From: a phage
Direction: 5' to 3' (one strand)
Assembly: GCA_012628545.1 (NCBI GenBank)
Contig: GCA_012628545.1_3035.1
Length of the DNA: 64,000 nt
Positions 3,870 through 62,695 of this stretch are shown in pieces (positions within the stretch are counted from its first letter, which is position 1; each line of letters opens with the position of its first letter). The translations under genes and the position numbers were made by a program. The notes beneath the pieces are model-generated. The model ran no database searches and had not been told where the DNA came from. It saw nothing but the letters and a program-made list of their open reading frames with translations.

Positions 3870-5280
<1,411 letters not shown>

Positions 5281-5284
<4 letters not shown>

Positions 5285-6715: not shown

Positions 6716-8303
<1,588 letters not shown>

Positions 8304-8326
8304 AATAAAATGGGCCTTGCGGCCCA
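8304..8326 (-). promoter_or_regulatory. hairpin between nrdB stop and denA start
   Basis: tgggcc-ttgc-ggccca hairpin between a GGAG after the nrdB stop and the denA ATG. Confidence 0.4.
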
Positions 8327-8330
8327 CTCC

Positions 8331-9509
8331 TTAAAAATATTTTTTAAAACTCATCATAACTTTATCATCAACATCATTATCAATCTGTGCAACAAGGTAA
8401 GATGACAGTTCTACTTCTTGCGGCGCGGATTGAACATTATCAGAATTAAGGTATTCACGAATCCAAGGATATGGATGTTTAACCGGAGCATCGGTAATTG
8501 GGCATGGAAGACCGCACTGTTTCATACGAGATACAGTTAAGTAATCAATAAAGCTCCACATGCTATTTGTATTTAATCCAGGAACATCGCCATCTTTAAA
8601 TAAATGAACTGCCCAATCTTTTTCTTGGCGGTTAACTTCCATGAAAATATCAACTGCTTCTTGTTCACACTCTTTGGCAATTTTAACCCATTCATCACCA
8701 TCAGTGCCAAGTTGAAGTTGACGAATAATATATTGTGTACCTTTAAGATGAAGCTGCTCATCACGTGCAATGAACTTCATAATCTTGGCATTACCTTCCA
8801 TGATTTCCATATTCTTGTGGAAGTTAAAGGTACATGCAAAAGATACATAAAAACGAATAGCTTCCAATGCGTTGATTACGTGCAGGCAGAGGTAAAGAGA
8901 GCGCATTAGTTCACGTTTCCAATACATTTCATGCTCTATGGCATCTTCAATAACGTCTTCGTCTGCATTAATTTCTTTTTGGTATTCGATATCAGCTTTA
9001 GCGTTTTCCCAATAACGAGTTTTAATCAGAACATCATCATAATAACGACCAATAGATTCAGCGCGTTTCATAATAGCTTCATCTAATACAATCTCATCAA
9101 ATACCTTTGACGGATCAGTATAAAGATTTCGCATGATATGAGTATATGAACGACTGTGAATAGTTTCACTAAAAGTCCACGTAGCAACCCATGTATCAAG
9201 GCTTGGGTCTGAAATCAATGACATAAGTACAGCAGACGGCGCACGACCCTGAATGCTATCCAAAAGTGATTGATACTTCAGATTATTAGTAAAAATATCT
9301 TGCTGATATTGAGGAAGCTTGTTAAATTGCGCAGCATCCATCATTAAGTTTACTTCTTCAGGGCGCCAGAAAAATGACAACTGCTTTTCGGTTAAATCTT
9401 CAAAAACTTTATGACGTTGAATATCATAACGCGCAATACCAAGACCTGAACCAAAAAACATAGGTTCTTTTAAAACATCAACTGGATTTGTATTAAAAAC
9501 TGTGCTCAT
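8331..9509 (-). CDS. nrdB: ribonucleotide reductase small subunit
   Basis: 392-aa uninterrupted ORF, class Ia R2 family; no intron. Confidence 0.9.
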   Translation of the reverse strand: MSTVFNTNPVDVLKEPMFFGSGLGIARYDIQRHKVFEDLTEKQLSFFWRPEEVNLMMDAAQFNKLPQYQQDIFTNNLKYQSLLDSIQGRAPSAVLMSLISDPSLDTWVATWTFSETIHSRSYTHIMRNLYTDPSKVFDEIVLDEAIMKRAESIGRYYDDVLIKTRYWENAKADIEYQKEINADEDVIEDAIEHEMYWKRELMRSLYLCLHVINALEAIRFYVSFACTFNFHKNMEIMEGNAKIMKFIARDEQLHLKGTQYIIRQLQLGTDGDEWVKIAKECEQEAVDIFMEVNRQEKDWAVHLFKDGDVPGLNTNSMWSFIDYLTVSRMKQCGLPCPITDAPVKHPYPWIREYLNSDNVQSAPQEVELSSYLVAQIDNDVDDKVMMSFKKYF

Positions 9510-9560
9510 AAATTTTCCACTTAGTTAATAGATAGTGACTCGTCCATGAGTCAAATTATA

Positions 9561-11825
9561 TCATAATTTACAGGATGAACAATCTTCAGCTTTTGGAGTT
9601 TCTATTTCATAATCATCAGTACCAGAACCATCACGGGTATTATGATAATAGAAATTTTTTCCGCCAAAATACCAAAAATACAAAAGGTCATCAATCATTA
9701 TTGACATTGGAACCTTTCCTTTTGGAAAAATCTGTGGGTCATAATATGTATTCGCCGAAGCTGATTGACAAACCCATTTCAGCATAATAGCTACCTGCGT
9801 AAGATAAGGTTTATTACCTTTCTTAGCTAATTTCCATGTATAATCATAGAGGTCTATGTTATGCTCAATATTGGGCACGACTTGATTAAAGGAGCCCTCT
9901 TTTGATTCTTTAACAGAGACTGGTCCACGTGGAGGCTCGATACCGTTTGTACTGTTAGAAACTTGGGAAGATGACTCACATGGCATAAGTGCTGATAATG
10001 TGCTATTACGGATGCCAAAGAGCTTAAGGTCTTCCCGCAGCGACGACCAGTCACAAACGTATTTTGGAGCTGCGATTTGGTCAATCTTTTTATTGTACCA
10101 GTCGATAGGTAATTCGCCTCGAGACCAACGAGTGTCTGAATAATATTCGCAAGGTCCTTTTTCTTTGGCGAGCTTAATGGATGCTTTAATGAGTCCATAC
10201 TGTAATCTCTCAAATAGTTCATGTGTTAAATCGTTAGCATCTTCATAAGAAGCAAAGTTACTTGCCAGCCAAGCTGCATAGTTAGTAACACCTACACCGA
10301 GGTTACGACGCTTTTTAGCTTTTTCTGCTTCAGGAACTGGATATCCTTGGTAATCCAAAAGATTATCAAGAGCACGAACTTGAACTTCTGCTAATTCATT
10401 AATTTTATCTTGGTCTTGCCAATCGAAGTTATCCAGCACAAATGCAGATAACGTGCACAATCCAATTTCAGCATCGGGGCTATTCACATCATTTGTTGGA
10501 ATAGCAATTTCACAGCACAAGTTACTCTGACGAATAGGTGCCTTTTCACGAATAAATGGAGTATAGTTATTCGTATTATCAATGAACTGTACATAAATCC
10601 TTGCTGTTCCTGAGCGTTCAGTCATGAGCAATTCAAATAGTTCACGGGCTTTAATACGCTTTTTACGAATATTAGGGTCTTTTTCTGCTGCTTCGTATAA
10701 TTCACGGAAACGGTCTTGGTCTTTAAAATAAGAATAATAAAGCTCGCCACCCATTTCATGCGGACTGAACAAAGTAATGTAATCGTTCTTTCCGAATCGT
10801 TCCATCATCAAATCATTCAGCTGAACACCATAATCCATATGACGAATGCGGTTTTCTTCTACGCCTTTGTTATTTTTCAAAACGAGAAGATTTTCAACTT
10901 CCAAATGCCAAATAGGATAATAAGCAGTAGCAGCACCGCCACGAATTCCACCCTGTGAGCATGATTTAACTGCAGTCTGAAAATGTTTCCAAAAAGGAAT
11001 AACACCGGTATGGCGTACTTCACCCATGCCAATCTTAGAACCTTCGGCACGAATCATACCAACGTTAATACCAATTCCAGCGCGTTTAGAGATATATTCA
11101 ACAATTGAAGCGGAAGCCTTATTGATAGACTTCAGCGAATCACCTGCCTCAATAACAACACATGAACTAAACTGTCGAGTCGGAGTACGACAACCAGCCA
11201 TAATAGGAGTTGGCAGTGAAATCTGTCGAGTAGATACTGCTTCATAAAAACGGATAACATGTTTTAATCTATCAACAGGTTCATCTTGATGCAATGCCAT
11301 TCCAATAGTCATAAATGCAAACTGTGGAGTTTCATAAATTTGACCAGTGGTTTTATCTTTAACTAGATATTTTTCTTTTAATTGCATCGCCCCGGAATAA
11401 GTAAATTCCATATCCCGCTCGTGCTTAATTTTTGATTCTAAAAATGTAATTTCTTCTGCTGAATATTTTGACAATAATTCAGGGTCATATTTACCTGCAT
11501 TTACACAATAAGAAATATGGTCAATAAATGAACGCGGTTCATACTGCCCATAAACATGCTTACGAAGAGCAAACATTAAACAACGTGCAGCTACATATTG
11601 GTAATCAGGCTCTTCAACCGAAATAGAATTCGCAGCGGCCTTAATGACAATAGTCTGAATATCATCAGTGGTCATTCCATCACGGAGATATGATTTAATA
11701 TTTTCATATAATTCATAAGGATCTACAGATGTTCCTTCAGCTGCCCAAGATAAAACTTTAATAATTTTTTGCGGGTCAAAGCTCTGAGAAACACCACTAC
11801 TTTTGATAACATTAATTAATTGCAT
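9561..11825 (-). CDS. nrdA: ribonucleotide reductase large subunit
   Basis: 754-aa ORF, class Ia R1 family; T4 NrdA length. Confidence 0.95.
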   Translation of the reverse strand: MQLINVIKSSGVSQSFDPQKIIKVLSWAAEGTSVDPYELYENIKSYLRDGMTTDDIQTIVIKAAANSISVEEPDYQYVAARCLMFALRKHVYGQYEPRSFIDHISYCVNAGKYDPELLSKYSAEEITFLESKIKHERDMEFTYSGAMQLKEKYLVKDKTTGQIYETPQFAFMTIGMALHQDEPVDRLKHVIRFYEAVSTRQISLPTPIMAGCRTPTRQFSSCVVIEAGDSLKSINKASASIVEYISKRAGIGINVGMIRAEGSKIGMGEVRHTGVIPFWKHFQTAVKSCSQGGIRGGAATAYYPIWHLEVENLLVLKNNKGVEENRIRHMDYGVQLNDLMMERFGKNDYITLFSPHEMGGELYYSYFKDQDRFRELYEAAEKDPNIRKKRIKARELFELLMTERSGTARIYVQFIDNTNNYTPFIREKAPIRQSNLCCEIAIPTNDVNSPDAEIGLCTLSAFVLDNFDWQDQDKINELAEVQVRALDNLLDYQGYPVPEAEKAKKRRNLGVGVTNYAAWLASNFASYEDANDLTHELFERLQYGLIKASIKLAKEKGPCEYYSDTRWSRGELPIDWYNKKIDQIAAPKYVCDWSSLREDLKLFGIRNSTLSALMPCESSSQVSNSTNGIEPPRGPVSVKESKEGSFNQVVPNIEHNIDLYDYTWKLAKKGNKPYLTQVAIMLKWVCQSASANTYYDPQIFPKGKVPMSIMIDDLLYFWYFGGKNFYYHNTRDGSGTDDYEIETPKAEDCSSCKL

Positions 11826-12142
11826 AAGTCCTCAACTTGAAAATCGTCTTTAAACAATCGGTTAACTATATGAGCTATTATATCACCATGACACGGCTTT
11901 GGTTTACATGTGCATCCTAGCCTCATTCCACGTAAAGGCTCTAAATGTGCTTTAGTTATTTCTCCGGATTTAATTCGACGTATAAAATCTTTTTTGAATA
12001 ATTCAATGGCAGCCTCCCGGCTGCCAGCATCTTTACCGACGTAATTTCCCCAAAATGTACCACGGTGAATATTAACATCAAAGTCGGATTTGTATTTATT
12101 CACTACCCGGCATAGACGGCCCACGCTGGAATAATTCGTCAT
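11816..12142 (-). CDS. hypothetical protein
   Basis: 108-aa ORF. Confidence 0.5.
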
Positions 12143-12371
12143 ACTGTTTTTCCGTTAATACAGTAATATCATAGTAACAGTCAGAAGAAGTTTTAACTGT
12201 GGAAATTTTATTATCAAAATACTCACGAGTCATTTTATGAGTGTAGTATTTTTTACCATAAATGGTAATAGGCTGTTCTGGTCCTGGAACTTCTAACTCG
12301 CTTGGGTTAGGAAGTGTAAAAAGAACGGCACCAGAAGTATCTTTAAATCGTAAAATCATACATCCTCGCAA
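12096..12371 (-). CDS. hypothetical protein
   Basis: 91-aa ORF. Confidence 0.5.
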
Positions 12372-12379
12372 TAATAAAA

Positions 12380-13240
12380 TTACACCGCCATTTTTCCTTT
12401 AATTGGCAGATGAGATACATAGTTGTTAAGAACAAAATTATGAGGCTTTGCAAATTGACTCAACCAAAATACCTGCGATTCTGTGTCCCATTCATCAAAT
12501 TCATCTGGAAATTTTAATTGTAATTCGCATAAATCCATAGGTTCACGACGTAAAATTTCTTTACATTGTTCTACGTGATTCATATAGATATGAGTATTAC
12601 CACCAGAAAATATCAAATCTCCAGGAATAAGATTACACATTTTAGCTACAATATGAACTAACGTAGCATATGATGCAATATTAAATGGAAGACCGAGGAA
12701 AACATCTACCGAACGTTGATACCACTGCAAATCTAAATAGCCATTACGCACATTAAACTGATAGAACATATGACAAGGCGGTAATGCCATATATTTAAGT
12801 TCAGCTGGATTCCACGCAGAAACAATTTGACGCCTATCATTCGGCAGTTTTTTAATACGATCAATAACTTCTACAATTTGGTCTACACCGCCAAAATCAC
12901 GCCATTGTTTTCCATAAATTGGACCAAGTTCACCGCTATGATATCCTAAATCTTTTGCCTGATTTTCGTAATTTTCATCCCAGACTGTTTTGCCTTGGAT
13001 TAACGAATCGTGTTGAATTAATCGTAAATCATTGACATTTGTGCTTCCTGATAAAAACCATATTAGCTCAGCAATGCATGCATTCCAGGCGAGCTTTTTA
13101 GTTGTTACTGCAGGAAAGCCTTTAGTTAAATCCCAACGCAATTTAGTACCGAACAGAGCAATTGTTCCTGTGCCTGTGCGATCATCGGTTTCATAGCCAT
13201 TTTCAAAAATGTCTTTAATTAAATCTTGGTATTGTTTCAT
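12380..13240 (-). CDS. td: thymidylate synthase
   Basis: 286-aa uninterrupted ORF with ThyA active-site region LPPCH; no intron. Confidence 0.95.
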
Positions 13241-13285
13241 TTAGTACCTTATATAAATTATAATACATTTTATGAAGCTAAATAA

Positions 13286-13645
13286 TCAATACGGTTTAGC
13301 ATCAAATTTTCTCTCAATTTCAGGTGTGAAATATAATTCTTTACCGCGTTTGGAAAAGCGACCAATAATATGATAATTATTCTCATCAAACGTAATATTA
13401 CCAATATCCATAGCTTTCAACCAAATATCGATATTTCTATCCAGCTTTATGTCAAAATTCCAATACGGAGAACTATTACCGAAAATACTGCAAGCGGATT
13501 CAGTGAAACAACTGCTATAAATCTTGTCTTTAGGAACTACTAATTGATAGACACCTTTAATAAACTGAGGACCCTGCCACTTTGGCTGTTTCGCGTCTTT
13601 TTCTAATAGAATAGGGTAATAATTAAAATTCATATTTTCCGCCAC
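13286..13645 (-). CDS. hypothetical protein
   Basis: 119-aa ORF between td and frd; no recognisable motif. Confidence 0.5.
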   Translation of the reverse strand: MAENMNFNYYPILLEKDAKQPKWQGPQFIKGVYQLVVPKDKIYSSCFTESACSIFGNSSPYWNFDIKLDRNIDIWLKAMDIGNITFDENNYHIIGRFSKRGKELYFTPEIERKFDAKPY

Positions 13646-13653
13646 GTATTATT

Positions 13654-14480
<827 letters not shown>

Positions 14481-14491
14481 ATTATCTCCTA

Positions 14492-14824
14492 TTAAAAAGG
14501 ATCAGGAATATATCCGCTAGCTTTAATCATTTTAATTAACGTTAGCATTCCTTTATTAACCGCTAGTGAGATTTCATCAAAAACTTCATCACTAAAAAGT
14601 TCTAACACACCCTTCTGAACTTTTAATTTACAGCCAACAATTTCGTCATCGCCTATAGTAAATTCATTACCACCAATTCCTCCGAAAAACTTAATTACAC
14701 CAGTTAACTGTCTTCCACGAGAATATGGGTCGTGTGATAAAGTAATATGAGTCACCCCGGGTACAGTTTTAAATTGGCAGCGAATATTTACTTGTGAAAT
14801 TCCAGTTACATGAATATCAGACAT
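14492..14824 (-). CDS. hypothetical protein
   Basis: 110-aa ORF. Confidence 0.5.
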   Translation of the reverse strand: MSDIHVTGISQVNIRCQFKTVPGVTHITLSHDPYSRGRQLTGVIKFFGGIGGNEFTIGDDEIVGCKLKVQKGVLELFSDEVFDEISLAVNKGMLTLIKMIKASGYIPDPF

Positions 14825-16191: not shown

Positions 16192-17100
16192 TTAAAGGTC
16201 ATTCAAAAGGTCATCCAGGTCCGTGTCATCAGCACTAGATGAACTGCTAGAGCTTGAGCTCATAAAATCATCTTCAGTTTTTGTATTGAAGTCATCAACA
16301 TTGAATGCATCCAAATCATCAGCAACTTTATCAGCTTTCTTAGCGGCAGTTGCTGCGGCACCGCCCATCACAGCAGTTCCCATAACTTGACCGAATTTAG
16401 TGCTCAGTTCTTCAAACGATTTGAATTTATCTTTAGAAGTCATTTCAGAAAGGTCAACCATTTGTTCGAACAGTTCTTTCTGGAAAGATTCATCATCAAT
16501 GTTTGGAATCGCAGATTGATTCAGGAATTTAGATTCGTCGTAGTTACTAAAACCAGAAACTTGTTTAACTTTCAGTACAAAGTTAGCACCTTCCCACGGA
16601 CAAGTTACATCAACCGGAGTTTCACCCATTTCAACATCAACTGCAATCATTGCATTGATTTTATCCCAGATTTTCTTACCGAAACGGTATTTAAATACTT
16701 TACCTTCGTTTTCTGGAGCAGCTGGGTCTTTTACAACAAGAATGTTAGCCCAGTAAGAAGTTTTACGTTTAACAAGACTGTACTCTTTATTGTCAGTGTT
16801 GTACAGATCATTTTTACTAATGTATTGACATACTGGGCAAGAATCGTAATCACCGTGGGTAGATGAACAGTTTTCAATATACCATTTACCATTTTTCTTG
16901 AAACCGTGATTTACAAGAATTGCGAACGGTGCTTGTTCATCATTTTTAGACGGAAGAAAACGAATTACTGCTTGACCGTTACCCGCATTGTCGAGTTTCA
17001 GTTTCCACTCGCCTTTATCTTCAGAAGAAAAACCACCTTTATTTCCAGCCAGTTTAGCCATTTGTGCAGCGAGTTCAGCAGTAGATTTACGTTTAAACAT
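16192..17100 (-). CDS. 32: single-stranded DNA-binding protein
   Basis: 302-aa ORF with acidic Ser/Asp-rich C-terminal tail; matches T4 gp32. Confidence 0.95.
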
Positions 17101-17170
17101 TTTTATTTCCTTTTAATTTAATTAACAGTTGGTGCTATGACGATGTATGACCTCATAGCTGGTCAGTGAG
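17101..17170 (-). promoter_or_regulatory. gene 32 translational operator (leader with pseudoknot)
   Basis: Leader contains GCUAUGAGGUCAUACAUCGUCAUAGCACC followed by A/U-rich tract before the AUG. Confidence 0.45.
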
Positions 17171-17173
17171 ATA

Positions 17174-17202
17174 ATTATAATCTATTTATAATAAGCAATT
17201 AA
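17174..17202 (-). promoter_or_regulatory. overlapping middle and late promoters of gene 32
   Basis: Minus strand TTGCTTAT MotA box, 12 bp, TATAAT; TATAAATA within the spacer. Confidence 0.45.
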
Positions 17203-17852
17203 TACTTGCAAGATTTCACAGTTTCAATGAAAACACTTTTAGCTTTCTGTGAATCAATATTTAAAATTTTTCTATAAGCCTTTAACTTTATAGAATAATT
17301 ATTCCAGACTAAATTATCAGTCTGTTCATCATGTTTATCAATTATATTTAAAAATGAATCAAGCAAGATAAACGTCTCAAACGAAATTATGTTCGATTGC
17401 AGAAGTTTAAAAATATAACTTGACTGAACCTTTGGATTATATTCAAAGATTTCTTTAAAAGCAGAAACTTCAACTTTTTTACTAAAATAATAAATGTTGC
17501 GAATATCTTCTTCAAACTTAAATTTAATTTGCTTTAAGCGTCCGATATATTCACGATAAAACACAAGTGCATCAGCGTCAGAGATGTCACCAATCCAAGC
17601 ATCTTGGTTAGCTACAAGATTGCTAATAAAAATTAAAGTCAATTCTTTTAATTTATACTTTTCTGATAGCTTTTGGAAAAAATACTTATCCCTTCGCTTT
17701 TGATAAGCGGCATCAGACACCCGCATGCACCAATTATACTTAATAACATCATACTTTCCATTCATATGTTGTTTTATCATTAAGTATAATTTATAAACTG
17801 ATTTACCATCAATATATCTTTCACCACCAGCAGGCATGCGGAGTTTAATCAT
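17199..17852 (-). CDS. 59: helicase loader
   Basis: 217-aa ORF; T4 gp59 length and sequence recall. Confidence 0.9.
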   Translation of the reverse strand: MIKLRMPAGGERYIDGKSVYKLYLMIKQHMNGKYDVIKYNWCMRVSDAAYQKRRDKYFFQKLSEKYKLKELTLIFISNLVANQDAWIGDISDADALVFYREYIGRLKQIKFKFEEDIRNIYYFSKKVEVSAFKEIFEYNPKVQSSYIFKLLQSNIISFETFILLDSFLNIIDKHDEQTDNLVWNNYSIKLKAYRKILNIDSQKAKSVFIETVKSCKY

Positions 17853-25191: not shown

Positions 25192-28100
25192 ATGGCTACT
25201 TTAAAACAAATACAATTTAAAAGAAGCAAAACCGCAGGTGCACGTCCTGCTGCTTCAGTATTAGCCGAAGGTGAATTGGCTATAAACTTAAAAGATAGAA
25301 CAATTTTTACTAAAGATGATTCAGGAAATATCATCGATTTAAGCATTTCTGCTGGTGGTAATATCAGTGGTAATATTACTCAAACTGGTGATTATACACA
25401 GACTGGAAAATTTAATTTAATTGGTCCGCAAATTGTAGAAAGCGGTGGATATATTGAGTTTAATTATCGTACTATTGGAAGTGGGGCTTGGTCTGGTCAA
25501 CACACTGCAAAAGCTCCAATTTTTGTAGATTTAAGCTCAGCTACTTCCACATCTGAATATAATCCTATAATTAAACAGCGCTTTAAAGATGGAACTTTTT
25601 CATTAGGTACTTTAGTTTCTGAAGGTTCGTTGAAGATTCATTATATCAATGAATCTGGCGATTCGAAATATTGGACGTTTCGACGTGACGGCGGATTTGT
25701 TGTTGACGGTGGAGGTTTAGCAGTATCAGGAGGTAGTATAACTACATCTGGAAATATTGCAGCTCTCGGAAATATTACTTCGCCTCAGATTAATACTAAA
25801 AATATTATTTTAGATACAAAAGCATTTGGACAATACGATTCGCAATCATTAGTTCAATATGTTTATCCTGGAACAGGTGAAGAAAATGGTATAAACTATC
25901 TTCGTAAAGTTCGAGCTAAATCAGGCGGAACCATTTACCATGAAATCGCTTCAGCTCAAACCGGTAAAAATGATGAAATTTCTTGGTGGACCGGAAATAC
26001 ACTTACTACTAAATTAATGGGTCTTCGTAATGATGGCGCAATGGTATTACGTCGTTCACTTGCTATTGGCACAATTACCACTGACGAAAATACTAACAAC
26101 TATGGTTCTCCTACTCCAATGGGAGAAAGATATATTGCTTTGGGCGATGCTGCCACTGGTTTAAAATACATTAAGCAGGGTGTTTATGATTTAGTAGGTA
26201 ATTGGAATTCTGTTGCTTCTATTACTCCTGATAGTTTCCGTAGTACTCGTAAAGCGTTATTTGGACGTTCAGAAGACCAAGGCGGAACCTGGACAATGCC
26301 TGGAACGAACGCTGCCTTTTTATCAGTTCAAACACAGGCTGATGAAAACACTGCTGGAGACGGCCAGACGCATATTGGCTATAACTCAGGCGGAAAAATG
26401 AACCACTATTTCCGTGGTAAAGGCAAAACTAATATTAATACTCAGGAAGGTATGGAAGTTAATCCGGGTATTTTGAAATTGGTAACTGGCTCTAATAATG
26501 TAATGTTTTATGCTGATGGCGGTATTACATCTGTTAAGCAGCTTTCAATATATAATGGCATATATTTAGCAGCTAATAATTCTACTGCTGGGCTAACATT
26601 CGCTCCAACTACTACAATTGATGGCACTAAGCAAATTTTGTGGGAAGGCGGTACTCGTGCTGGTCAGAATAAAAGCTATGTAACTGTTAAAGCATGGGGT
26701 AATTCATTTAACGCATCTGGCGATCGTAATCGTGAAACGGTTTTTGAAGTAGCTGATGGACAAGGATATTATTTTTATTCACAGCGTGTGGCTCCAAGTG
26801 GCTCTGAAACTACTGGGCCTGTTGTAACCCAGTTCAATGGACAAGTTAATGCTAGAGGAAGTATTATTACTGACGGAAGTTTTAAAGTTAATGGATTAAG
26901 CACTTTAGTCGGTAATGTTACCATGTCTAATGGTTTGTTTGTCCAAGGTGGTTCTTCTATTACTGGACAAGTAAAAATTGGTGGAACTGCTGATGCATTA
27001 AGAATTTGGAATGCCGAATACGGTGCTATTTTCCGTCGCTCAGAAACAGCATTACATATTATCCCGACTCCTAAAGATGCCGGTGAAAGTGGTGGAATAA
27101 GTAATCTCCGCCCACTTAGTATTAGTCTTAATAATGGTATGGTACAAATGCGCCATTCTGTTACGTTAGGCGATGATGGCGCTGGCGGTAATATGATTAC
27201 TGTGGACAACGATACCAAACTTGTTGTTGTTACTAGTCATAGTCGTATTTCTCCTAATTACCGTATGCAGGTAGGACAAGCAGCTTATATTGATGCTGAA
27301 TGTACTGACACCGTTCGCCCGGCTGGTGCAGGGTCTTTTGCTTCACAAAATAATGAAAACGTTCGTGCTCCGTTCTATATGAATATTAATCGCACAGATA
27401 CAAGTACTTACGTTCCTATTTTAAAACAACGTTATGTTCAAGGAAATAGCTGTTATTCTTTAGGTACTTTAATAAATGGCGGTAACTTCAGAGTTCATTA
27501 TCATGAAGGTGGAGACGGAAGTTCAACAGGCGCAATTATAAAAGATTTAGGCTGGGAATTTACACGTTCTGGTGATTTTATATCTCCTAAGCGCATTTCT
27601 GCTGGGGGTTCAGTTTATTTAGGTACAGACGGTAACATTACTGGTGGTTCTGGTAATTTTGCCAACTTAAATAGTACAATTGAATCACTTAAAACTGATA
27701 TTGTTTCAAGTTATCCTATTGGAGCTCCGATTCCTTGGCCTACTGATACACCTCCTGAAGGTTATGCCATAATGGAAGGTCAAACATTTGATGTTGGCTT
27801 GTATCCTAAGTTAGCTGCGGTGTATCCTTCCGGCTCTCTGCCTGATATGCGCGGGCAAACTATCAAGGGTAAACCATCTGGGCGTGCTGTATTAAGTACA
27901 GAAGCAGACGGTGTTAAGTCACATAGTCATAGTGCAAGTGCATCAAGCACGGATTTGGGTACTAAGACCACATCAAGCTTTGACTATGGTACTAAGACGA
28001 CAAGTAGTTTCGACTATGGTACTAAGACCAGTAATAATACTGGTGCTCATACGCATAGTTTGAGCGGTTCCACAAACACCGCCGGTGCGCACAGCCACAC

Positions 28101-28413
28101 AAGCGCTCTTTATGCGGGAAGTAACAACTCTCCTGGTACTGGTTCTATAAGAGGATCCGCCGGTGGTGGTAATACGCTTGGAACTTCTTCTTCTGGGGCA
28201 CATTCGCACTCTATATCTGGTACTGCTGCAAGCGCAGGCGCTCACGCGCATACTGTTGGTATTGGTGCTCATACCCATACTGTAGGTATCGGTGCTCATA
28301 CCCACACGGTAGCAATTGGCTCGCATGGTCATACTATCACTGTAAATAGTACAGGTAATACAGAAAACACGGTTAAAAACATTGCTTTTAACTATATTGT
28401 TCGTTTAGCATAA
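25192..28413 (+). CDS. 37: long tail fibre distal subunit (receptor-binding tip)
   Basis: 1073-aa ORF; His-X-His repeats and conserved C-terminus [11 protein letters not shown] as in T4-type gp37. Confidence 0.9.
27958..28030 (+). repeat. tandem 30-nt coding repeat in gene 37 ([10 protein letters not shown] x2.3)
   Basis: Two full and one partial copies with identical peptide but different serine codon families. Confidence 0.6.
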
Positions 28414-28417
28414 GGAG

Positions 28418-28433
28418 AGGGGCTTCGGCCCCT
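28418..28433 (+). promoter_or_regulatory. hairpin between Shine-Dalgarno and AUG of gene 38
   Basis: AAGGAGAGG then GGGGC-UUCG-GCCCC then UUCUAAAU AUG. Confidence 0.45.
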
Positions 28434-28440
28434 TCTAAAT

Positions 28441-28992
28441 ATGAAAATCTATCATTATTATTTTGACACTAAAGAATTTTACAAAGAAGAAAATTACAAA
28501 CCTGTTAAAGGTCTCGGTCTTCCTGCTCATTCAACAATTAAAAAACCTTTAGAACCTAAAGAAGGATACGCAGTTGTATTTGATGAACGTACTCAAGATT
28601 GGATTTATGAAGAAGACCATCGCGGCAAACGAGCATGGACTTTTAATAAAGAAGAAATTTTTATAAGTGACATTGGAAGCCCGGTTGGTATAACCTTTGA
28701 TGAGCCCGGCGAATTTGATATATGGACTGATGACGGTTGGAAAGAAGACGAAACATATAAACGCGTTTTAATTCGCAATAGAAAAATTGAAGAATTATAC
28801 AAAGAATTTCAAGTTTTAAATAATATGATTGAAGCTTCTGTCGCGAATAAAAAGGAAAAATTCTATTATAAAAACCTTAAGCGATTCTTTGCTCTTTTAG
28901 AAAAGCATGAGCATTTAGGTGGTGAATTTCCCGCATGGCCTGAAAAAGAACGGAAACCTTGGTATAAGCGTTTATTCAAGCATTACGTATAA
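28441..28992 (+). CDS. 38: tail fibre assembly chaperone
   Basis: 183-aa ORF; matches T4-type gp38 by length and sequence recall. Confidence 0.85.
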   Translation: MKIYHYYFDTKEFYKEENYKPVKGLGLPAHSTIKKPLEPKEGYAVVFDERTQDWIYEEDHRGKRAWTFNKEEIFISDIGSPVGITFDEPGEFDIWTDDGWKEDETYKRVLIRNRKIEELYKEFQVLNNMIEASVANKKEKFYYKNLKRFFALLEKHEHLGGEFPAWPEKERKPWYKRLFKHYV

Positions 28993-31761: not shown

Positions 31762-32397
31762 TCACAGTTCAGATGCTACAGTGATTACAGCTTCAATGTT
31801 TTCTGCTGAACGTTTAATGTCAAGATACACATTACCGTTTTTAGCGATTTTACATGACATTCCGATATCAGTAAATTTCTGAATATGATGTTCCATCATT
31901 TTGTATCCAAAAATTCGCATGTTTCCATTGTTGTTAATTTCAAAATTACGAATTCCGTGAGTGCGTTTTTCTAAAATAGCGAGATAGTTACTGCGATAAG
32001 TTTCGACCTTTTTAAGAACAAATCCATTTTCATCTAAAAGTTTTAACATGAAGTCTTTATCTTCTTCCATATCAGAAGTAATCTCACGAGATTTACGAGT
32101 TGCTCGTTTTTTCAGCAGTTCCGGAGCATTTTCCTGTGCGTATAAAGTTGCTGCGTTTGAAATAATATCCTGAGCTTCACCAGTAATGATTAATCCATCA
32201 CCAGATTTCTCTACCAGGCCCTTTTTAATCAATACACCAATATTACTATTAACTACTGCGTTACCTAAATCTGGATGCACCTCACGAACTTCTGCAGCTG
32301 TAATGAAATCTTTCTTAGCAATAGTAATTAAAATCGCAGCAGTTTTTTCATTCAGAACATCGTTAGAAGCTTTGATGATGTAAGTTACTTTAGACAT
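31762..32397 (-). CDS. motA: middle-promoter transcription activator MotA
   Basis: 211-aa ORF; matches T4 MotA by length and sequence recall. Confidence 0.9.
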   Translation of the reverse strand: MSKVTYIIKASNDVLNEKTAAILITIAKKDFITAAEVREVHPDLGNAVVNSNIGVLIKKGLVEKSGDGLIITGEAQDIISNAATLYAQENAPELLKKRATRKSREITSDMEEDKDFMLKLLDENGFVLKKVETYRSNYLAILEKRTHGIRNFEINNNGNMRIFGYKMMEHHIQKFTDIGMSCKIAKNGNVYLDIKRSAENIEAVITVASEL

Positions 32398-32424
32398 TTT
32401 CTAATCTCCGTAATTCTGTATCAG

Positions 32425-32468
32425 TAGTTGATAGTTGTATAGTACCACAGTATGCTTTGGTTGTAAAC
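32425..32468 (-). promoter_or_regulatory. early promoter for motA (conserved family)
   Basis: GTTTAC, 15 bp, TGGTACTATACAACTATCAACTACTGA. Confidence 0.5.
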
Positions 32469-32489
32469 CGTTTTGTGAAAAAATTTTTG

Positions 32490-32522
32490 AAATAAAAAAA
32501 AGGGAGAGCCTCGGCTCTCCCT
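32490..32522 (-). terminator. rho-independent terminator
   Basis: GGGAGAGCC-UCGG-CUCUCCC hairpin with A/T runs. Confidence 0.55.
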
Positions 32523-35779: not shown

Positions 35780-36043
35780 TCATAGCTCAATCTCAATGAT
35801 TTCAAGATTATTTTCTTTAATAGCTTTCTTTAAATCATCGTAAATAAGAACTTCCCAAGAATTGTTTAAATCACCATTCAACAAACGCTCTTGTTGCAAT
35901 TTATCAGTAAGATACGGTTGATCTGATTCATATTTAGACAATCCCAATGAAATAAATGATGTTGCATCGTCAATTTCAGAATATTGTACATGAACAAATT
36001 CACCTGTGATTTTATGTTTAACATAAAAGAATTTAAATTTCAT
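35780..36043 (-). CDS. hypothetical protein
   Basis: 87-aa ORF just downstream of an early promoter copy. Confidence 0.45.
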   Translation of the reverse strand: MKFKFFYVKHKITGEFVHVQYSEIDDATSFISLGLSKYESDQPYLTDKLQQERLLNGDLNNSWEVLIYDDLKKAIKENNLEIIEIEL

Positions 36044-36057
36044 TTTCCGCTCCTCCG

Positions 36058-36101
36058 TAGTTGATAGTTGTATAGTACCACGGTCCTTGTGGTATGTAAA
36101 C
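36058..36101 (-). promoter_or_regulatory. early promoter (conserved family)
   Basis: GTTTAC, 15 bp, TGGTACTATACAACTATCAACTAC. Confidence 0.45.
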
Positions 36102-36119
36102 TGTTTTGTGAAAAAATTT

Positions 36120-36677
36120 TTAAATGGAAAGATACCATCCGTTGTAGTTGCTTTTTCTTACAACCTTACGAAGGTCTTCTCTGTCACCGATGAACTTCGG
36201 AGTGTACTGGATGACACCTGGATGAATTTCTTTAGTGTTGAATATAATTATACAGTCAGCGACTTGATGATTTAGAATGGGCCCTAGATTTATTCCAGAA
36301 CCATATGGATACTCTCCGCTGCATCCTGTTGTTACCGAAATCCAACGTGAGTCAGTTTGATGTGTCTTAACTTCTACGCGAAGCCCACAGTATTTTGGAT
36401 GCGCCAATACATCCCATGCATACGTGTACGGATCATCGACATCTTCTTGACCTTTATTAACATACCCGCTTAACCAATCTGCTACAAAAAACTCTGCGTA
36501 CACAGCGATACGACATCTTTCGATAACTTCTGCCTTATCCTGGTTCGGGTTTTGTTTTAAAGAGTATCTTGCTGTATCAGCAATTTTGACCTTCATTTCA
36601 TTGGTTAAATCGCTGTTCGATAGAGTAAATGTCGGAATCTGAAATAGTCTCTGCAAACCCGGATTCGTTTTCTGCAT
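36120..36677 (-). CDS. denB: endonuclease IV
   Basis: 185-aa ORF; T4 DenB length and position next to rIIB. Confidence 0.7.
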   Translation of the reverse strand: MQKTNPGLQRLFQIPTFTLSNSDLTNEMKVKIADTARYSLKQNPNQDKAEVIERCRIAVYAEFFVADWLSGYVNKGQEDVDDPYTYAWDVLAHPKYCGLRVEVKTHQTDSRWISVTTGCSGEYPYGSGINLGPILNHQVADCIIIFNTKEIHPGVIQYTPKFIGDREDLRKVVRKSNYNGWYLSI

Positions 36678-40105: not shown

Positions 40106-40378
40106 TTAATTCATATTACGTTTAATAACTTCAGCAACTTCTAGTAGTTCATCTTTAGTTGCGGTGTCGGATTGAATTTTATCTCTAATATCTTTAAAGC
40201 GGTTTTTAAATTCTTCGGCTTCTCCCATATCGAAAAAGCGTTGAATGATTCTATATTCTCGATGAACTGCTTTATCAAAAAGTTCTAAATTTACTCTATA
40301 TGATTTCATTTCAATATCCTCATTTGCCCAATTAATTATACCACATCCTTGTGTAAAGTAAACTACTGGCTCATCCAT
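40106..40378 (-). CDS. hypothetical protein
   Basis: 90-aa ORF. Confidence 0.5.
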
Positions 40379-42183
40379 TCTTTACGAAGGTCAGCATTAT
40401 CTCCCATGAGCATTTCAAAAAGCTCTTTCCAATTCTCAGGAAGTTTAACAACATCATATACTGGATTTTGAATCATCTCACGATATTCAGATTTTTCCAA
40501 AGAGCCAAGTCCCTTAATATAACGGATGCTATGTTTAGGTAGAGCATCTTTGGCACTCTCATATTCAGCGACTGTATAAAACCATTCTTGTTTTTTACCG
40601 ACCTGAGCGATGATTACAGGAGTTTTGACAAAGCGAATTCGTCCTTGCTCAAACAATTCTGGCCAATTACTAAAAAATCCGAGCAGAGAAGGATAAATGC
40701 TTCCTAGACCATCATGGTCAGCATCAGTCATAATAGCAATATTGCGATAATTCAAGTTTTCAGCTTTTTCACCAAGAACTAGACCAGTGATTGCGCAAAT
40801 ATCAAATAGTTCTTTGTTTTTAAGCATATCGGCATATGACATACCCCAGCTATTAAGAACTTTACCGCGCAATGGATAACCACCATGAAGTTCTTTATCG
40901 CGAACATCAATAAGATATCCGATAGCTGAATCACCCTCAGTCAAGAACAATGTAGTGTCAGCATCTTTACCGCAAAGATTCGCTTTAATATGTTTATGAA
41001 CCTTAGCTTTAGAAGCCTTTTTAGCTGCTTTAGTTTCTGCTGCTTTTTCTGCCGCCAATTTACGAGCCAAAGCAGCTTCAATAATCGGCATCAGAATTGC
41101 TTCATTATTTAGAATAGCGCGTGAAATCTTTTTAGCGTCAAGTTGAATATGACTACGAATTTCGCCAAATGGAGAAGTCAAACGCTCTTTAGTTTGAGAA
41201 TCAAATCGCATGTTTTTCATATCACGAACAAACATAACGATAGTCAAACATTCTTTGACACGTGCTTTAGTTACATCAATTTTGAACTTACGTTTGATTT
41301 GTGGAATAAGGTCTTCACAAATATCATCCATAACACAGTCAATGTGATGGCCACCATTCTTAGTGTGAATGTTATTCACGTAAGTTAATTGACGAAATCC
41401 ATCCGGCGAACGACCAACCGCAATAGAACAATTTTCTTGTTCTTGAACAATAGCATGTTCATCATACTGTCGTGCATATTTCTTAAAATTACCCTGAACC
41501 TTTTTACCATTAAAGGTAAATTGAATATCAGGATAAACAACAGCAAGTGTCTGGAGACGATCTAGTGTAATGTCAAGATAAACTTGGGACAGCTCATTAG
41601 TTTCAAATGACATAAAATCAGGAATGAAAGTAACACGGGTTCCTTTCCATTTTCCAGGAATATCTTCCCATGATTTATTTTCCATGCCGTTTGAACAACG
41701 AACTACAATATTATTTTGACCATCGCCAGTTTCACCAACAAACATCACAGAAAAAATGTTTGTCAAACTAGAACCAACGCCATTCATACCACCGGTGACA
41801 CGTTCTTTATCATCACCGAAGTTACCACCTGCTTTTGGAATAGTCCACGCAGCAACAGGACCAGGAATTTCTTCACCGGTAGGTGTTTTAACCATCGCCT
41901 GTGGAATACCACGACCGTTATCTTCAACTGTTACTTGATTATTTTTAATAGTAACATTAATTTTATTTGCGAATTTAAACTTAGTACGAATACCTTCATC
42001 TACTGAGTTATCGATAATTTCATCAATAAGCTTAACAAGACCAGGTACATACTGAACACTTTCCCATTTACCAAACAGAAATCGCTCATGCATTTCATTA
42101 GCTGAAGAGCCAATGTACATGCCGCTACGCTTTTTGATATGTTCAATATCGCTCAGAATTTTAATTTCATTCTTAATCATCAC
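40363..42183 (-). CDS. 39: DNA topoisomerase II large subunit (GyrB-like), gene 39 and gene 60 parts in one ORF
   Basis: 606-aa uninterrupted ORF; GHKL ATPase N-terminus; C-terminus carries the T4 gp60 sequence (NVAIMTDADHDGLGSIYPSLLGFF...). Confidence 0.9.
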   Translation of the reverse strand: MMIKNEIKILSDIEHIKKRSGMYIGSSANEMHERFLFGKWESVQYVPGLVKLIDEIIDNSVDEGIRTKFKFANKINVTIKNNQVTVEDNGRGIPQAMVKTPTGEEIPGPVAAWTIPKAGGNFGDDKERVTGGMNGVGSSLTNIFSVMFVGETGDGQNNIVVRCSNGMENKSWEDIPGKWKGTRVTFIPDFMSFETNELSQVYLDITLDRLQTLAVVYPDIQFTFNGKKVQGNFKKYARQYDEHAIVQEQENCSIAVGRSPDGFRQLTYVNNIHTKNGGHHIDCVMDDICEDLIPQIKRKFKIDVTKARVKECLTIVMFVRDMKNMRFDSQTKERLTSPFGEIRSHIQLDAKKISRAILNNEAILMPIIEAALARKLAAEKAAETKAAKKASKAKVHKHIKANLCGKDADTTLFLTEGDSAIGYLIDVRDKELHGGYPLRGKVLNSWGMSYADMLKNKELFDICAITGLVLGEKAENLNYRNIAIMTDADHDGLGSIYPSLLGFFSNWPELFEQGRIRFVKTPVIIAQVGKKQEWFYTVAEYESAKDALPKHSIRYIKGLGSLEKSEYREMIQNPVYDVVKLPENWKELFEMLMGDNADLRKEWMSQ

Positions 42184-42250: not shown

Positions 42251-42519
42251 TATTTAAAACGAATAGTTGAATCCTTAAAGAACAGCCCAGAACATACTGT
42301 TCCTTCTACTTTCTGCCCGGTAGGTCCAATAGCACGAAATCCAGTATGTTGGAAATCATTTTCAGAACAACCGAACCAGTTATATCCAGTGATTTCAATA
42401 TTAGTAAAACCGCTTGAAGATAAAACTTTGGTTGCATTATCAGCATCAGTACATCCTACTAAAGACACTGTTAATACTAATGCTGCAATAGAACGATTAA
42501 TATATTTCATAATTTTCAC
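42250..42519 (-). CDS. putative lipoprotein
   Basis: 89-aa ORF with signal peptide and lipobox LVGCT. Confidence 0.5.
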   Translation of the reverse strand: MKIMKYINRSIAALVLTVSLVGCTDADNATKVLSSSGFTNIEITGYNWFGCSENDFQHTGFRAIGPTGQKVEGTVCSGLFFKDSTIRFK

Positions 42520-42887
42520 TTAAATTTAATGGCTTGAAGAAGACTAATAATTCTCAAGCGACTTCTTTCATCTTTAACTGTAAAAGAAAGAGGGTCACCA
42601 GATTTCATAGTAATAGTACATTCAAAATCAAAATCTTCGGAAACTTCTTTGAAGAAGTCAAATTCTTCATCATAAATTAGAACATTACTCTGACAACTAT
42701 GAAGAATTTTTCCATCATTTCCAGATGCTGTACTAATCATTGTAACATTATGACCTTTCATACCTTCAATGATAAATTCACTAGTCAATATTACAGCATT
42801 AATAGAACTATTCCTATTACTAGCAGAAAGTAGATATTTCTGTTCTTCACCTTCACGAATGCAATATTTCTTACCGATTTTAAACAT
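42516..42887 (-). CDS. hypothetical protein
   Basis: 123-aa ORF. Confidence 0.5.
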   Translation of the reverse strand: MFKIGKKYCIREGEEQKYLLSASNRNSSINAVILTSEFIIEGMKGHNVTMISTASGNDGKILHSCQSNVLIYDEEFDFFKEVSEDFDFECTITMKSGDPLSFTVKDERSRLRIISLLQAIKFK

Positions 42888-46618: not shown

Positions 46619-46856
46619 AAAGATAGCTAATTTCGCCTAAAACGTAATCATTGATTGTAACAGTTTTCACTTCACCACAAAAGAATTCTAACGCAATTAA
46701 ATCTCGTTCAATTTCTTCTAATTGAAGCATCAACTTACTAGATTCAATTTTTACAGTTTCACGATTTTTACCATGAGCAATTTCATAAATTTCGCTAACT
46801 TTATCCTGAAGAAGATAAAACTGATCTTTAGTTATTTCCACGAATAGCTTCCTCAA
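46596..46856 (-). CDS. hypothetical protein (tandem paralogue 2)
   Basis: 86-aa ORF similar to ORF 46361..46618. Confidence 0.5.
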   Translation of the reverse strand: MRKLFVEITKDQFYLLQDKVSEIYEIAHGKNRETVKIESSKLMLQLEEIERDLIALEFFCGEVKTVTINDYVLGEISYLYEAIIND

Positions 46857-47088
46857 ATTTAATTAGTAATTTACAGACACTTTCATCTAGTGTAATTACC
46901 GTATCTGTATTACTGTGATATGATTGTTTTTCAATTCGTTTAATTGCTAATATAGTATCACTTATAAGATAAAGCTTATGAAGGAGCTCAGCTCCTGTTA
47001 CCATAACATTAAGATTATCTTGCTTATTAGTATGCTTCCTTATACCATCTATTAGACGATTTAAATATTTTGAATTGATGTTAATCAT
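46828..47088 (-). CDS. hypothetical protein
   Basis: 86-aa ORF. Confidence 0.45.
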   Translation of the reverse strand: MININSKYLNRLIDGIRKHTNKQDNLNVMVTGAELLHKLYLISDTILAIKRIEKQSYHSNTDTVITLDESVCKLLIKFEEAIRGNN

Positions 47089-53270: not shown

Positions 53271-53286
53271 GTAATTCTCCTTTTAT

Positions 53287-53496
53287 TTAAATTACATGAT
53301 TATTTATAATAAATTCTCGCGGAACGTTAAAATACCCGATTTTAGTTAATATAACAACATCACCGTTAATAATTACCGGAGAATAATCTTCTGGAGCATT
53401 AAATTTCCAATGGGCTCTAATATTATATCCATCAGAACCAAATGCTCGACTAGCCGGTCTCCCGGCTTTTTGCCATACATAAAAATCAAATTTCAT
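53287..53496 (-). CDS. hypothetical protein
   Basis: 69-aa ORF. Confidence 0.45.
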   Translation of the reverse strand: MKFDFYVWQKAGRPASRAFGSDGYNIRAHWKFNAPEDYSPVIINGDVVILTKIGYFNVPREFIINNHVI

Positions 53497-53517
53497 TTTG
53501 AATGCTCTATAATTAAT

Positions 53518-53691
53518 TTTAAAGCTTCTTCACTGACAAAATTTCGTCAGGACCTTCTTCTATAACCCAATCAACCATACGAAGTTGATTAGTTAAGAGC
53601 TCACATACGAGCTCCTTGTTATAATCTTTAAATAGCTGGTCAATACGTTTCTTATGGGCTTTCTTAAGCTGACGCTTATTTAAACGAGCCA
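53518..53691 (-). CDS. small basic hypothetical protein (57 aa)
   Basis: Hand-translated MARLNKRQLKKAHKKRIDQ...; below ORF-track cutoff. Confidence 0.35.
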
Positions 53692-54244: not shown

Positions 54245-54270
54245 ATTATACAATAAATATATAAAGCAAT
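54245..54270 (-). promoter_or_regulatory. MotA-dependent middle promoter for gene 56
   Basis: Minus strand ATTGCTTTA MotA box, 11-12 bp, TATAAT. Confidence 0.5.
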
Positions 54271-54281
54271 AAGGATGACAT

Positions 54282-55675: not shown

Positions 55676-56032
55676 TTAACCTTTATTCATAAAAGCATTA
55701 AAAATTTGGTCATCAATAGAAGGTGCAGCAATATTTTCTGCATCATTTAGCAAATCATTAATTTCATCAGATAGCATAACACATGTACCTTTATTTCCCG
55801 TAATTGTTACTGCGCAATTACGAACGTTTTCTTTATTAAATTTTAGGTTAATATTTTCGTAATGAAAATCCTTTAATGCTGAATATATTTTTAAAATAAA
55901 ATTGTCTTTTACTACAATAAACCCAACCTCACTATTAAAACGTGGTTCATGGAAACTGTAATAAACCTTTTCATCTATAAAATCGTATGAAATTTTTTCC
56001 ATTTTTAAATATGAAAATTCAGAACTATACAT
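55676..56032 (-). CDS. hypothetical protein
   Basis: 118-aa ORF. Confidence 0.5.
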   Translation of the reverse strand: MYSSEFSYLKMEKISYDFIDEKVYYSFHEPRFNSEVGFIVVKDNFILKIYSALKDFHYENINLKFNKENVRNCAVTITGNKGTCVMLSDEINDLLNDAENIAAPSIDDQIFNAFMNKG

Positions 56033-59854: not shown

Positions 59855-59931
59855 TCATTTTTTCCATAGGCATCATTATATTTTCCTCACTGGTTAAAGA
59901 TAGAGTAATTATAACACAATAAATTTAGGCA

Positions 59932-60780
59932 TTAATCAACTGCTATTGGATGAATAGCATTAAACTTATGAAATGCTTCTGATTTTTCTTTACGCGAAAC
60001 ACACATGCGAAGAACCTTTAATGGCTCGTCTTCTTCACCCAACGATTTTCGTTTTTCAATATTCGACGTTTTCCAACGAGCTTGCTCTGGAAACTCTCTA
60101 TTGATTTGCTCAAGCGCTCTATTATGTTTAGAATTACTACGAATTGAACTACACCCACCAGGAGCTTGCGCTTTACCTGATACAACCAGATATTTGAACA
60201 AGGCCAAATGCGGATAACCTTGATTAATTAAATTGAGAAATGCATACATATCTTCGCACAAATCAATTTTTCCATACCCAATTTGTTCTGTCGTAAGTTT
60301 TCCAAGGTCATACCATGTATTCGTGAATCCATATGAATTTTCACGATAATTACCCCAAGATGAAGTAATTTTAAAAATTGGTAGGCGAGCATGACCGTGA
60401 TAATACCCACAATCCATGGCATCTTCGACGTATTGAATCAATTCATAGAACTGTTCATGAGTCAATTGATTGACTTTATCCACACAACGACGGTCATCTC
60501 TTTTTCGCATTGAACTCATACGAATAGTAGTATCATCGTCAATCATCCAGATTCGTTGGCCTGCATACATATCAGTAATTGCTTTACGAGTACCGGCAAT
60601 TCCGTTTACATCATCAGGAATAGTTATAATTTTAGCTCTAGACCCATAGGCATCATAATAAGCTTTTTCTTCATGTTCACGCACTACAATATGGGGTTCA
60701 TAATCAGTCGGAAACATATCAAGGGCAGAAACTGCCCCGACCCGCTGATAACTTGGAATTACGAATTGAATCATTTCCAC
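59932..60780 (-). CDS. putative DNA hydroxymethylcytosine glycosyltransferase (non-T4-type)
   Basis: 282-aa ORF with DxD-like motif WMIDDDTTI; occupies the beta-gt position between uvsX and gene 42 but does not resemble T4 beta-gt as I recall it. Confidence 0.45.
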   Translation of the reverse strand: MEMIQFVIPSYQRVGAVSALDMFPTDYEPHIVVREHEEKAYYDAYGSRAKIITIPDDVNGIAGTRKAITDMYAGQRIWMIDDDTTIRMSSMRKRDDRRCVDKVNQLTHEQFYELIQYVEDAMDCGYYHGHARLPIFKITSSWGNYRENSYGFTNTWYDLGKLTTEQIGYGKIDLCEDMYAFLNLINQGYPHLALFKYLVVSGKAQAPGGCSSIRSNSKHNRALEQINREFPEQARWKTSNIEKRKSLGEEDEPLKVLRMCVSRKEKSEAFHKFNAIHPIAVD

Positions 60781-62314: not shown

Positions 62315-62551
62315 TCAAATGCAAGTAGTAATTACTCCAGTAGTGCTTATGCAGGTATTACCCATTTGCACACCTAAAGATCCATTTGTATTCACATGAA
62401 GATTATCATCAATTTTAACTGATATTTTACCATTAGTGTGAATAACAGTGCTAGATTCAATCACAGGTTGAGTATCATTTTCAACACTAACAAATGGAAC
62501 TGCTGCTAATGCAACTAAACAAACTGCTAAGCATCCCATAACAATTTTCAT
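62315..62551 (-). CDS. hypothetical secreted protein
   Basis: 78 aa from internal ATG (MKIVMGCLAVCL signal peptide); ORF-track extension reads through a promoter. Confidence 0.45.
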   Translation of the reverse strand: MKIVMGCLAVCLVALAAVPFVSVENDTQPVIESSTVIHTNGKISVKIDDNLHVNTNGSLGVQMGNTCISTTGVITTCI

Positions 62552-62569
62552 TTTATTCTCCAAATCCGT

Positions 62570-62618
62570 ATCAGTAGTTGATAGTTGTATAGTACCATGG
62601 AAGAACATTCTTGTAAAC
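62570..62618 (-). promoter_or_regulatory. early promoter (conserved family)
   Basis: GTTTAC, 15 bp, TGGTACTATACAACTATCAACTACTGATACG. Confidence 0.5.
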
Positions 62619-62695
62619 AGTTTTGTGAAAATTTTTTTAGGGAATTCTAAAGGTCCAGAATCATCTGTTTTTCATAAGTATAGATTTATATTACT

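Follow-up and report, generated by a model that had tools for sequence, protein, structure and literature searches.

Empty intron and homing-endonuclease sites in and around the nrdB–td cluster of a Tequatrovirus genome segment

A 64,000-nucleotide (nt) stretch of phage DNA (contig GCA_012628545.1_3035.1; hereafter the window) was analysed for the group I introns and the genes for homing endonucleases that, in T4, lie within and near nrdB, encoding the small subunit of ribonucleotide reductase, and td, encoding thymidylate synthase. We conclude with high confidence that the region between these two genes is an ordinary Tequatrovirus deoxynucleotide-synthesis cluster, nrdB–nrdA–nrdA.1–nrdA.2–td, in an unoccupied, T2-type state. 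Both genes are continuous open reading frames (ORFs), their exon junctions are contiguous when aligned to T4, and tblastn, custom hidden Markov models (HMMs) and Pfam agree that the 64 kb encode no seg- or mob-type homing endonuclease, DenA being the only GIY-YIG protein. To this extent the original prediction, which had described intron-less td and nrdB genes in a segment free of such endonucleases, was borne out.

Continuous td and nrdB genes

The td gene (12380–13240, minus strand) is a single intron-less ORF of 286 amino acids (aa), and a full-length thymidylate synthase domain (PF00303, Thymidylat_synt; E 4.7e-93) covers residues 2–286. It aligned to exon 1 plus exon 2 of T4 td with zero extra bases. 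The missing T4 interval, 143547–144563 (~1,017 nt, the td intron with I-TevI), is absent exactly at 12692/12691, where the equivalents of the two exons abut as ...CCTCGGT/CTTCCATTT...; the empty insertion site (12691–12692, minus strand) thus reads exon 1 ...GGT/CT... exon 2. The 25 nt downstream of this junction are identical to the T2 allele. A CAACG motif lying 23–27 nt upstream of the insertion site (12714–12718, minus strand) is kept in T4, T2 and the window, and fits CNNNG, the established cleavage motif of I-TevI. Separately, a patch of ~30 codons near the C-terminus of td (codons ~234–265; window ~12446–12541, minus strand) is unrelated to both T4 and T2, with 28% nucleotide identity in a 60-nt bin as compared with 92–100% across the remainder of the gene. 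By its sequence, this patch looks like a local mosaic exchange.

The nrdB gene (8331–9509, minus strand) is likewise a continuous, intron-less ORF, of 392 aa, and was identified by a full-length domain match as the small subunit of a class Ia ribonucleotide reductase (PF00268, Ribonuc_red_sm; E 9.9e-37, residues 33–335). It is identical to T2 nrdB at 1138 of 1179 nt (96.5%). In a gapped alignment, T4 138458–139055 (598 nt, the nrdB intron with its I-TevIII remnant) is missing exactly at 8834/8833, and the junction is contiguous there, ...TTTTGCAT/GTACCTTT..., the empty insertion site (8833–8834, minus strand) being ...GCAT/GTACC.... The introns that the original prediction had ascribed to T4, with I-TevI and I-TevIII in them, both exist, but the I-TevIII of T4 is a truncated, defective copy of 97 aa. 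NrdB aligned with its T4 counterpart over the whole length save for one variable patch at aa ~165–200, away from the junction, which holds the 4-aa surplus over the 388 aa of T4 NrdB. This patch (window ~8910–9017, minus strand) lies just upstream of the intron insertion site; the net effect of its differences from T4 is a gain of 4 aa, and nowhere else is nrdB so unlike T2, one 60-nt bin having 78% identity.

The 5' part of nrdB and the DNA beyond it are of the T2 type. Positions 91–145 of the gene match T2 throughout and depart from T4 at many places; over nt 60–180, identity is 72–78% to T4 and about 100% to T2. MobE-dependent nicks have been mapped in T2 nrdB at nt 122–126, and MobE mobilizes both mobE and the nrdB intron (PMC2790892). 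The equivalent of that nick site (9384–9388, minus strand) is surrounded by T2 sequence in the window. Between nrdB and nrdA, where T4 has nrdB.1 and mobE (~700 nt), the window has a spacer of 51 nt (9510–9560, minus strand) that is 100% identical to T2 and represents the empty mobE/nrdB.1 site. The rest of the cluster, also on the minus strand, comprises nrdA (9561–11825), whose product, the 754-aa large subunit of ribonucleotide reductase, shares 98.7% identity with T4 NrdA from end to end, with neither intein nor intron; nrdA.1 (11816–12142; DUF4326, Pfam E 5.5e-22), 100% identical to T4; and nrdA.2 (12096–12371; DUF5496, Pfam E 1.5e-62), 97.8% identical to T4.

In keeping with the continuous ORFs and contiguous exon junctions, td and nrdB contain no non-coding insertion at the T4 insertion sites. 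The Rfam covariance model for the catalytic core of group I introns, RF00028 (Intron_gpI), run in E-value mode, gave no match in window 7800–13800 at E ≤ 1 and none across the whole 64 kb at E ≤ 0.1. The same mode recovered both introns in the T4 control (td, 40.3 bits, E 9.2e-08; nrdB, 35.7 bits, E 2.3e-06). Gathering mode was uninformative, being silent on the window and equally on the T4 introns; these score under 50, the gathering score of RF00028, and phage introns of this kind therefore cannot be excluded by a default Rfam scan.

Comparison with the two reference phages places the window beside T2. In T2 (AP018813.1; AY310907.2), as in the window, the order is nrdB (1179 nt), a 51-nt spacer, nrdA, nrdA.1, nrdA.2, td (861 nt), td.1 and frd; introns, mobE and segG are lacking, the nrdA–nrdB spacer and the MobE nick region are identical, and the td.1 protein is 100% identical. 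Overall nucleotide identity to T2 is ~95–96%, and the two differ in the C-terminal segment of td (aa ~234–265) and in gp38, which in the window is T4-type (98.9% identical to T4). T4 (NC_000866) has a colinear gene order and 94–97% nucleotide identity over most shared genes, with DenA, NrdA, nrdA.1 and nrdA.2 nearly identical. T4 differs in having, in the corresponding interval, a td intron that contains I-TevI, an nrdB intron that contains the defective I-TevIII, nrdB.1 and mobE, segG, a gene 60 split with mobA, segF and segA, all of them absent from the window; it lacks td.1, and dam and beta-gt occupy loci of T4 at which the window has neither.

Homing endonucleases and their sites across the window

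T4 is colinear with the window from ~129.8 kb, across its genome ends, to ~28.5 kb (blastn). Seven T4 elements fall in this interval, namely I-TevI, I-TevIII (defective), mobE, segG, mobA (a remnant), segF and segA, and the window has a clean gap at the position of each. The empty segG site is a 98-nt spacer between genes 59 and 32 (17101–17198, minus strand), which lacks the ~623 nt of T4 segG and is identical to T2 except for one extra A in T2. Topoisomerase gene 39 (40363–42183, minus strand) is unsplit; it encodes 606 aa with GyrB/Toprim domains and has no gene 60 bypass, 60.1 or mobA, 1,117 nt of T4 being absent. Its product reads ...HDG/LGSIYP... straight over the T4 gene 60 hop, without the 50-nt translational bypass of T4. 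The empty segF site, the interval between soc and gene 56 (53271–53691, minus strand), holds two small ORFs of 69 and 57 aa, which matched DUF7422 and PHROG 5782 and have no nuclease domain. At the empty segA site, between uvsX and gene 42 (59855–60780, minus strand), a 282-aa glycosyltransferase (Pfam TAGT) stands in place of segA and beta-gt.

Direct searches of the window gave the same picture. When all 15 T4 endonucleases were compared with it by tblastn, denA was the sole match (99.3% identity), the remainder scoring E ≥ 0.2. Custom HMMs, one based on the GIY-YIG domains of nine T4 proteins and one on the HNH regions of four Mob proteins, were then run with filters off against 1,185 segments (≥25 aa) of the six-frame translation. 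The seg-type GIY-YIG model, which represents the N-terminal catalytic domain of SegA-G, I-TevI and I-TevII, found nothing better than denA at E 0.26, and the best match of the mob-type HNH model was at E 0.93. As a control, all 14 T4 copies were recovered: all nine GIY-YIG copies at E ≤ 3.5e-24, and the HNH copies at E ≤ 2.3e-15, down to the 37-aa mobA remnant. The one GIY-YIG gene of the window, denA (7893–8327, minus strand), encodes the non-homing endonuclease II, 99.3% identical to T4 DenA, and its detection by Pfam (GIY-YIG, E 5.4e-06) provided the positive control there. DenB was considered as a second GIY-YIG protein, but this was unsupported, since it has no Pfam match.

Coding density in the window is high, with 119 non-overlapping ORFs and just four uncovered stretches of at least 100 bp, each ≤150 bp. 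Orthologs of T4 genes other than homing endonucleases account for 104 of the 119 ORFs, and each of these T4-orthologous proteins aligned as a single full-length segment, so that no conserved gene of the window is split by an intron or intein. In the 15 ORFs lacking a T4 ortholog, neither Pfam nor PHROGs detected a GIY-YIG, HNH, LAGLIDADG or other nuclease domain.

Relatives, td.1 and the history of the empty sites

Megablast against a phage collection returned 979 records matching window 7800–13700, 501 of which span ≥80% of the query at a single location. The top matches are all Tequatrovirus: TH09 (98.6%), SHBML-50-1 (98.0%), CM8 (97.6%) and RB51/RB68 (96.9%). These phages match in one contiguous piece, are also intron-less and endonuclease-less, and differ from the window in this region by point differences only; they, rather than T4, are the typing reference for the window. 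Two further phages with the same backbone are occupied. JLBYU31 (97.8% identical over the region) has a gene for a 243-aa HNH+NUMOD1 endonuclease between nrdA and nrdB, and TadeuszReichstein (97.3%) has an nrdB intron with a 229-aa ORF. Since occupancy differs among phages that are 97–98% identical, the profile of empty sites is a strain-level rather than a lineage marker. Its usefulness for typing, as originally proposed, is thus upheld for strains and not for lineages. It groups the phage with the T2/RB51-type Tequatrovirus genomes, which have few endonuclease genes.

The original prediction implicitly took T4 as the norm, and here the relation is the reverse. About 500 phage records hold the nrd–td region, and more than 500 share the contiguous layout. 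When T4 elements were counted among phage records at ≥80% coverage, the td intron was found in 197, segG in 142, the nrdB intron in 118, segF in 50, segA in 26 and mobE in 21. Each is thus present in just a minority of sequenced relatives, and the empty state is the usual one among relatives of T4, which the literature describes as the outlier. The finding is known biology, and the window is ordinary among T4 relatives. T-even phages have been known since the late 1980s to vary in their td, nrdB and nrdD introns and in their seg and mob genes, and this variability underlies the literature on marker exclusion between T2 and T4.

In this unoccupied, T2-type state of the cluster, the td and nrdB reading frames are unsplit and call for no splicing; the T4 sites of mobE, segG, segF, segA and mobA are represented by short spacers or unrelated small genes, and DenA, which degrades host DNA, is the only site-specific endonuclease encoded in the window. 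In a mixed infection with T4, such a genome would be the recipient: its DNA would be nicked or cut, and gene conversion would bring in the td intron, mobE and, in trans, the nrdB intron. This role is predicted by analogy with published T2 × T4 work, because nrdB's 5' region and the nrdA–nrdB spacer are the T2 allele nicked by MobE, and the td junction keeps CAACG and a T2-like binding region. The practical use of the observation is threefold, namely this prediction of the phage as a recipient of T4 elements, its grouping with the T2/RB51-type genomes, and the lack of support for a database label, that of td.1, discussed below.

Several points weigh against the conclusion that the segment is simply unoccupied and open to invasion. 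A few td positions upstream of the junction differ from T4 and T2 alike, and the susceptibility of the window to I-TevI is therefore something that we infer. The window is 64 kb of a genome of ~167 kb, and further endonuclease genes may lie elsewhere in it. Pfam, moreover, is imperfectly sensitive. For the 229-aa ORF of the TadeuszReichstein nrdB intron, which bears a homing endonuclease annotation and was scanned as a positive control, Pfam gave neither an HNH nor a GIY-YIG match at E ≤ 0.01, and just a probably spurious one to FlgM, so that a negative result from Pfam is not absolute; in a formal sense, a very divergent small nuclease could still be encoded among the unannotated ORFs of 57–123 aa.

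The one candidate for an unrecognized element was td.1 (13286–13645, minus strand), an ORF between frd and td that encodes 119 aa from a GTG codon, or 115 aa from the ATG at which relatives start. It is absent from T4, in which frd and td abut or overlap. Its ortholog is labelled 'putative homing endonuclease' in two GenBank records, those of the BASEL phages FriedrichZschokke and TadeuszReichstein, an annotation that the original prediction had overlooked; a T6 record names it td.1, a hypothetical protein. Together with the label, its location between conserved neighbours that in T4 touch or overlap and its presence in some Tequatrovirus but not in others are what would be expected of a free-standing endonuclease of unrecognized type, in which case the segment would not be free of homing endonucleases. 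The properties of the protein argue otherwise. It has no Pfam match and belongs to PHROG 1928, of unknown function. An exhaustive HMMER search yielded a family of 17 representatives, nearly all of 99–116 aa, in whose alignment Q16, W19, G27, G91, K95 and G97 are invariant and there is no conserved Asp, Glu or His from which a nuclease site might be built. No similarity to a solved nuclease fold was found, matches in BFVD being to uncharacterized proteins of T4-like phages only, and at 115 aa the protein lacks the length to hold both a nuclease and a DNA-binding domain. By tblastn, td.1 is present in 581 phage records, one copy per genome, with frd and/or td as neighbours among the annotated matches listed. 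Its identity to the window protein ranges from 100% in T2 to 26–44% in T4-like phages of Klebsiella, Edwardsiella and Citrobacter, and the divergence tracks phage genus, as expected of vertical inheritance and not of recent invasion. On conservation pattern, structure and synteny, we rejected td.1 as a homing endonuclease, a reading that we hold to be highly improbable, and the database label is unsupported. On the same sequence comparisons, td.1 appears to be a vertically inherited small gene that is missing from the T4 sublineage and does not follow the pattern of a mobile endonuclease. We attach equally little credence to the broader proposal that td.1, ~0.55–0.95 kb upstream of the I-TevI site, is a structurally new free-standing homing endonuclease or some other selfish or anti-selfish factor; were it true, the segment would not be truly free of such elements. 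It is more likely to be an uncharacterized accessory protein of the deoxynucleoside triphosphate synthesis cluster, with a fold absent from solved structures, that was lost by T4. We also considered whether co-conversion carried the absence of td.1 along with the td intron, in which case td.1 and the intron would never occur together. Their record counts had looked complementary (197 for the intron and 363 for td.1, ~560 together), but a chimeric query requiring both found 90 records that carry both, including T6, RB3 and PST, and the idea was rejected.

The empty sites might also be secondary, an ancestor having carried the elements and been 'cured' of them by precise loss through recombination with an intron-less co-infecting phage or with spliced cDNA. 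That occupancy varies among phages 97–98% identical in the region shows frequent gain and loss on the same backbone, and the 90 records with both td.1 and the td intron show free reassortment. However, the flanks of the empty sites are T2-type and not T4-type, as seen at nt 60–180 of nrdB, and no T4 co-conversion tract is left, although loss via replacement by a whole T2-type allele would still be compatible with this. We consider such a cured history possible but rather unlikely. Histories of loss and of never having been invaded yield the identical present sequence. Describing the segment as 'naive' toward T4 selfish elements is hence correct in that none of the seven is present, and too strong in that a never-invaded genome is indistinguishable from one that has lost them secondarily.

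Neighbouring loci

Outside the nrdB–td cluster, the window departs from T4 at several places. The 282-aa protein at the place of segA and beta-glucosyltransferase (59932–60780, minus strand) is TET-associated-glycosyltransferase-like (Pfam TAGT, E 1e-09), which suggests a pattern of hydroxymethylcytosine glucosylation unlike that of T4. The DNA-adenine methyltransferase gene dam (T4 16846–17625) is gone from its usual locus between gene 56 and gene 61, where ~21 bp are left (window 54251–54271), and T4 Dam gave no tblastn match anywhere in the 64 kb. In place of T4 gene 61.2 there is an ORF of 118 aa (55676–56032, minus strand), ~30% identical to T4 61.2, that matches just the C-terminal half of Pfam AdfA (anti-DarT factor A; E 9.3e-08).

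Small ORFs have been added relative to T4, all on the minus strand, at pseT/pseT.1 (4964–5284), at frd/frd.1 (14235–14824; one with DUF7247), near 39.1/39.2 (42516–42887; distant goF-like PHROG matches), at dexA.2/dda (46828–47088) and at imm.1/gene 43 (62315–62608). Searches of Pfam and PHROGs found no nuclease domain in them, and their PHROG families are all of unknown function. Three intergenic sequences of ~100 bp (32387–32499, 36031–36122 and 62544–62644) are alike one another and also resemble T4 intergenic sites upstream of gene 32, denB, motA and imm.1/43; judging from this resemblance, they may be repeated promoter or regulatory cassettes. Finally, the distal tail fibre protein gp37 (25192–28992, plus strand) is 62.6% identical to T4, whereas the adjacent gp38 is 98.9% identical to the chaperone-type gp38 of T4. 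This contrast is a receptor-specificity mosaic typical of T4-like phages.

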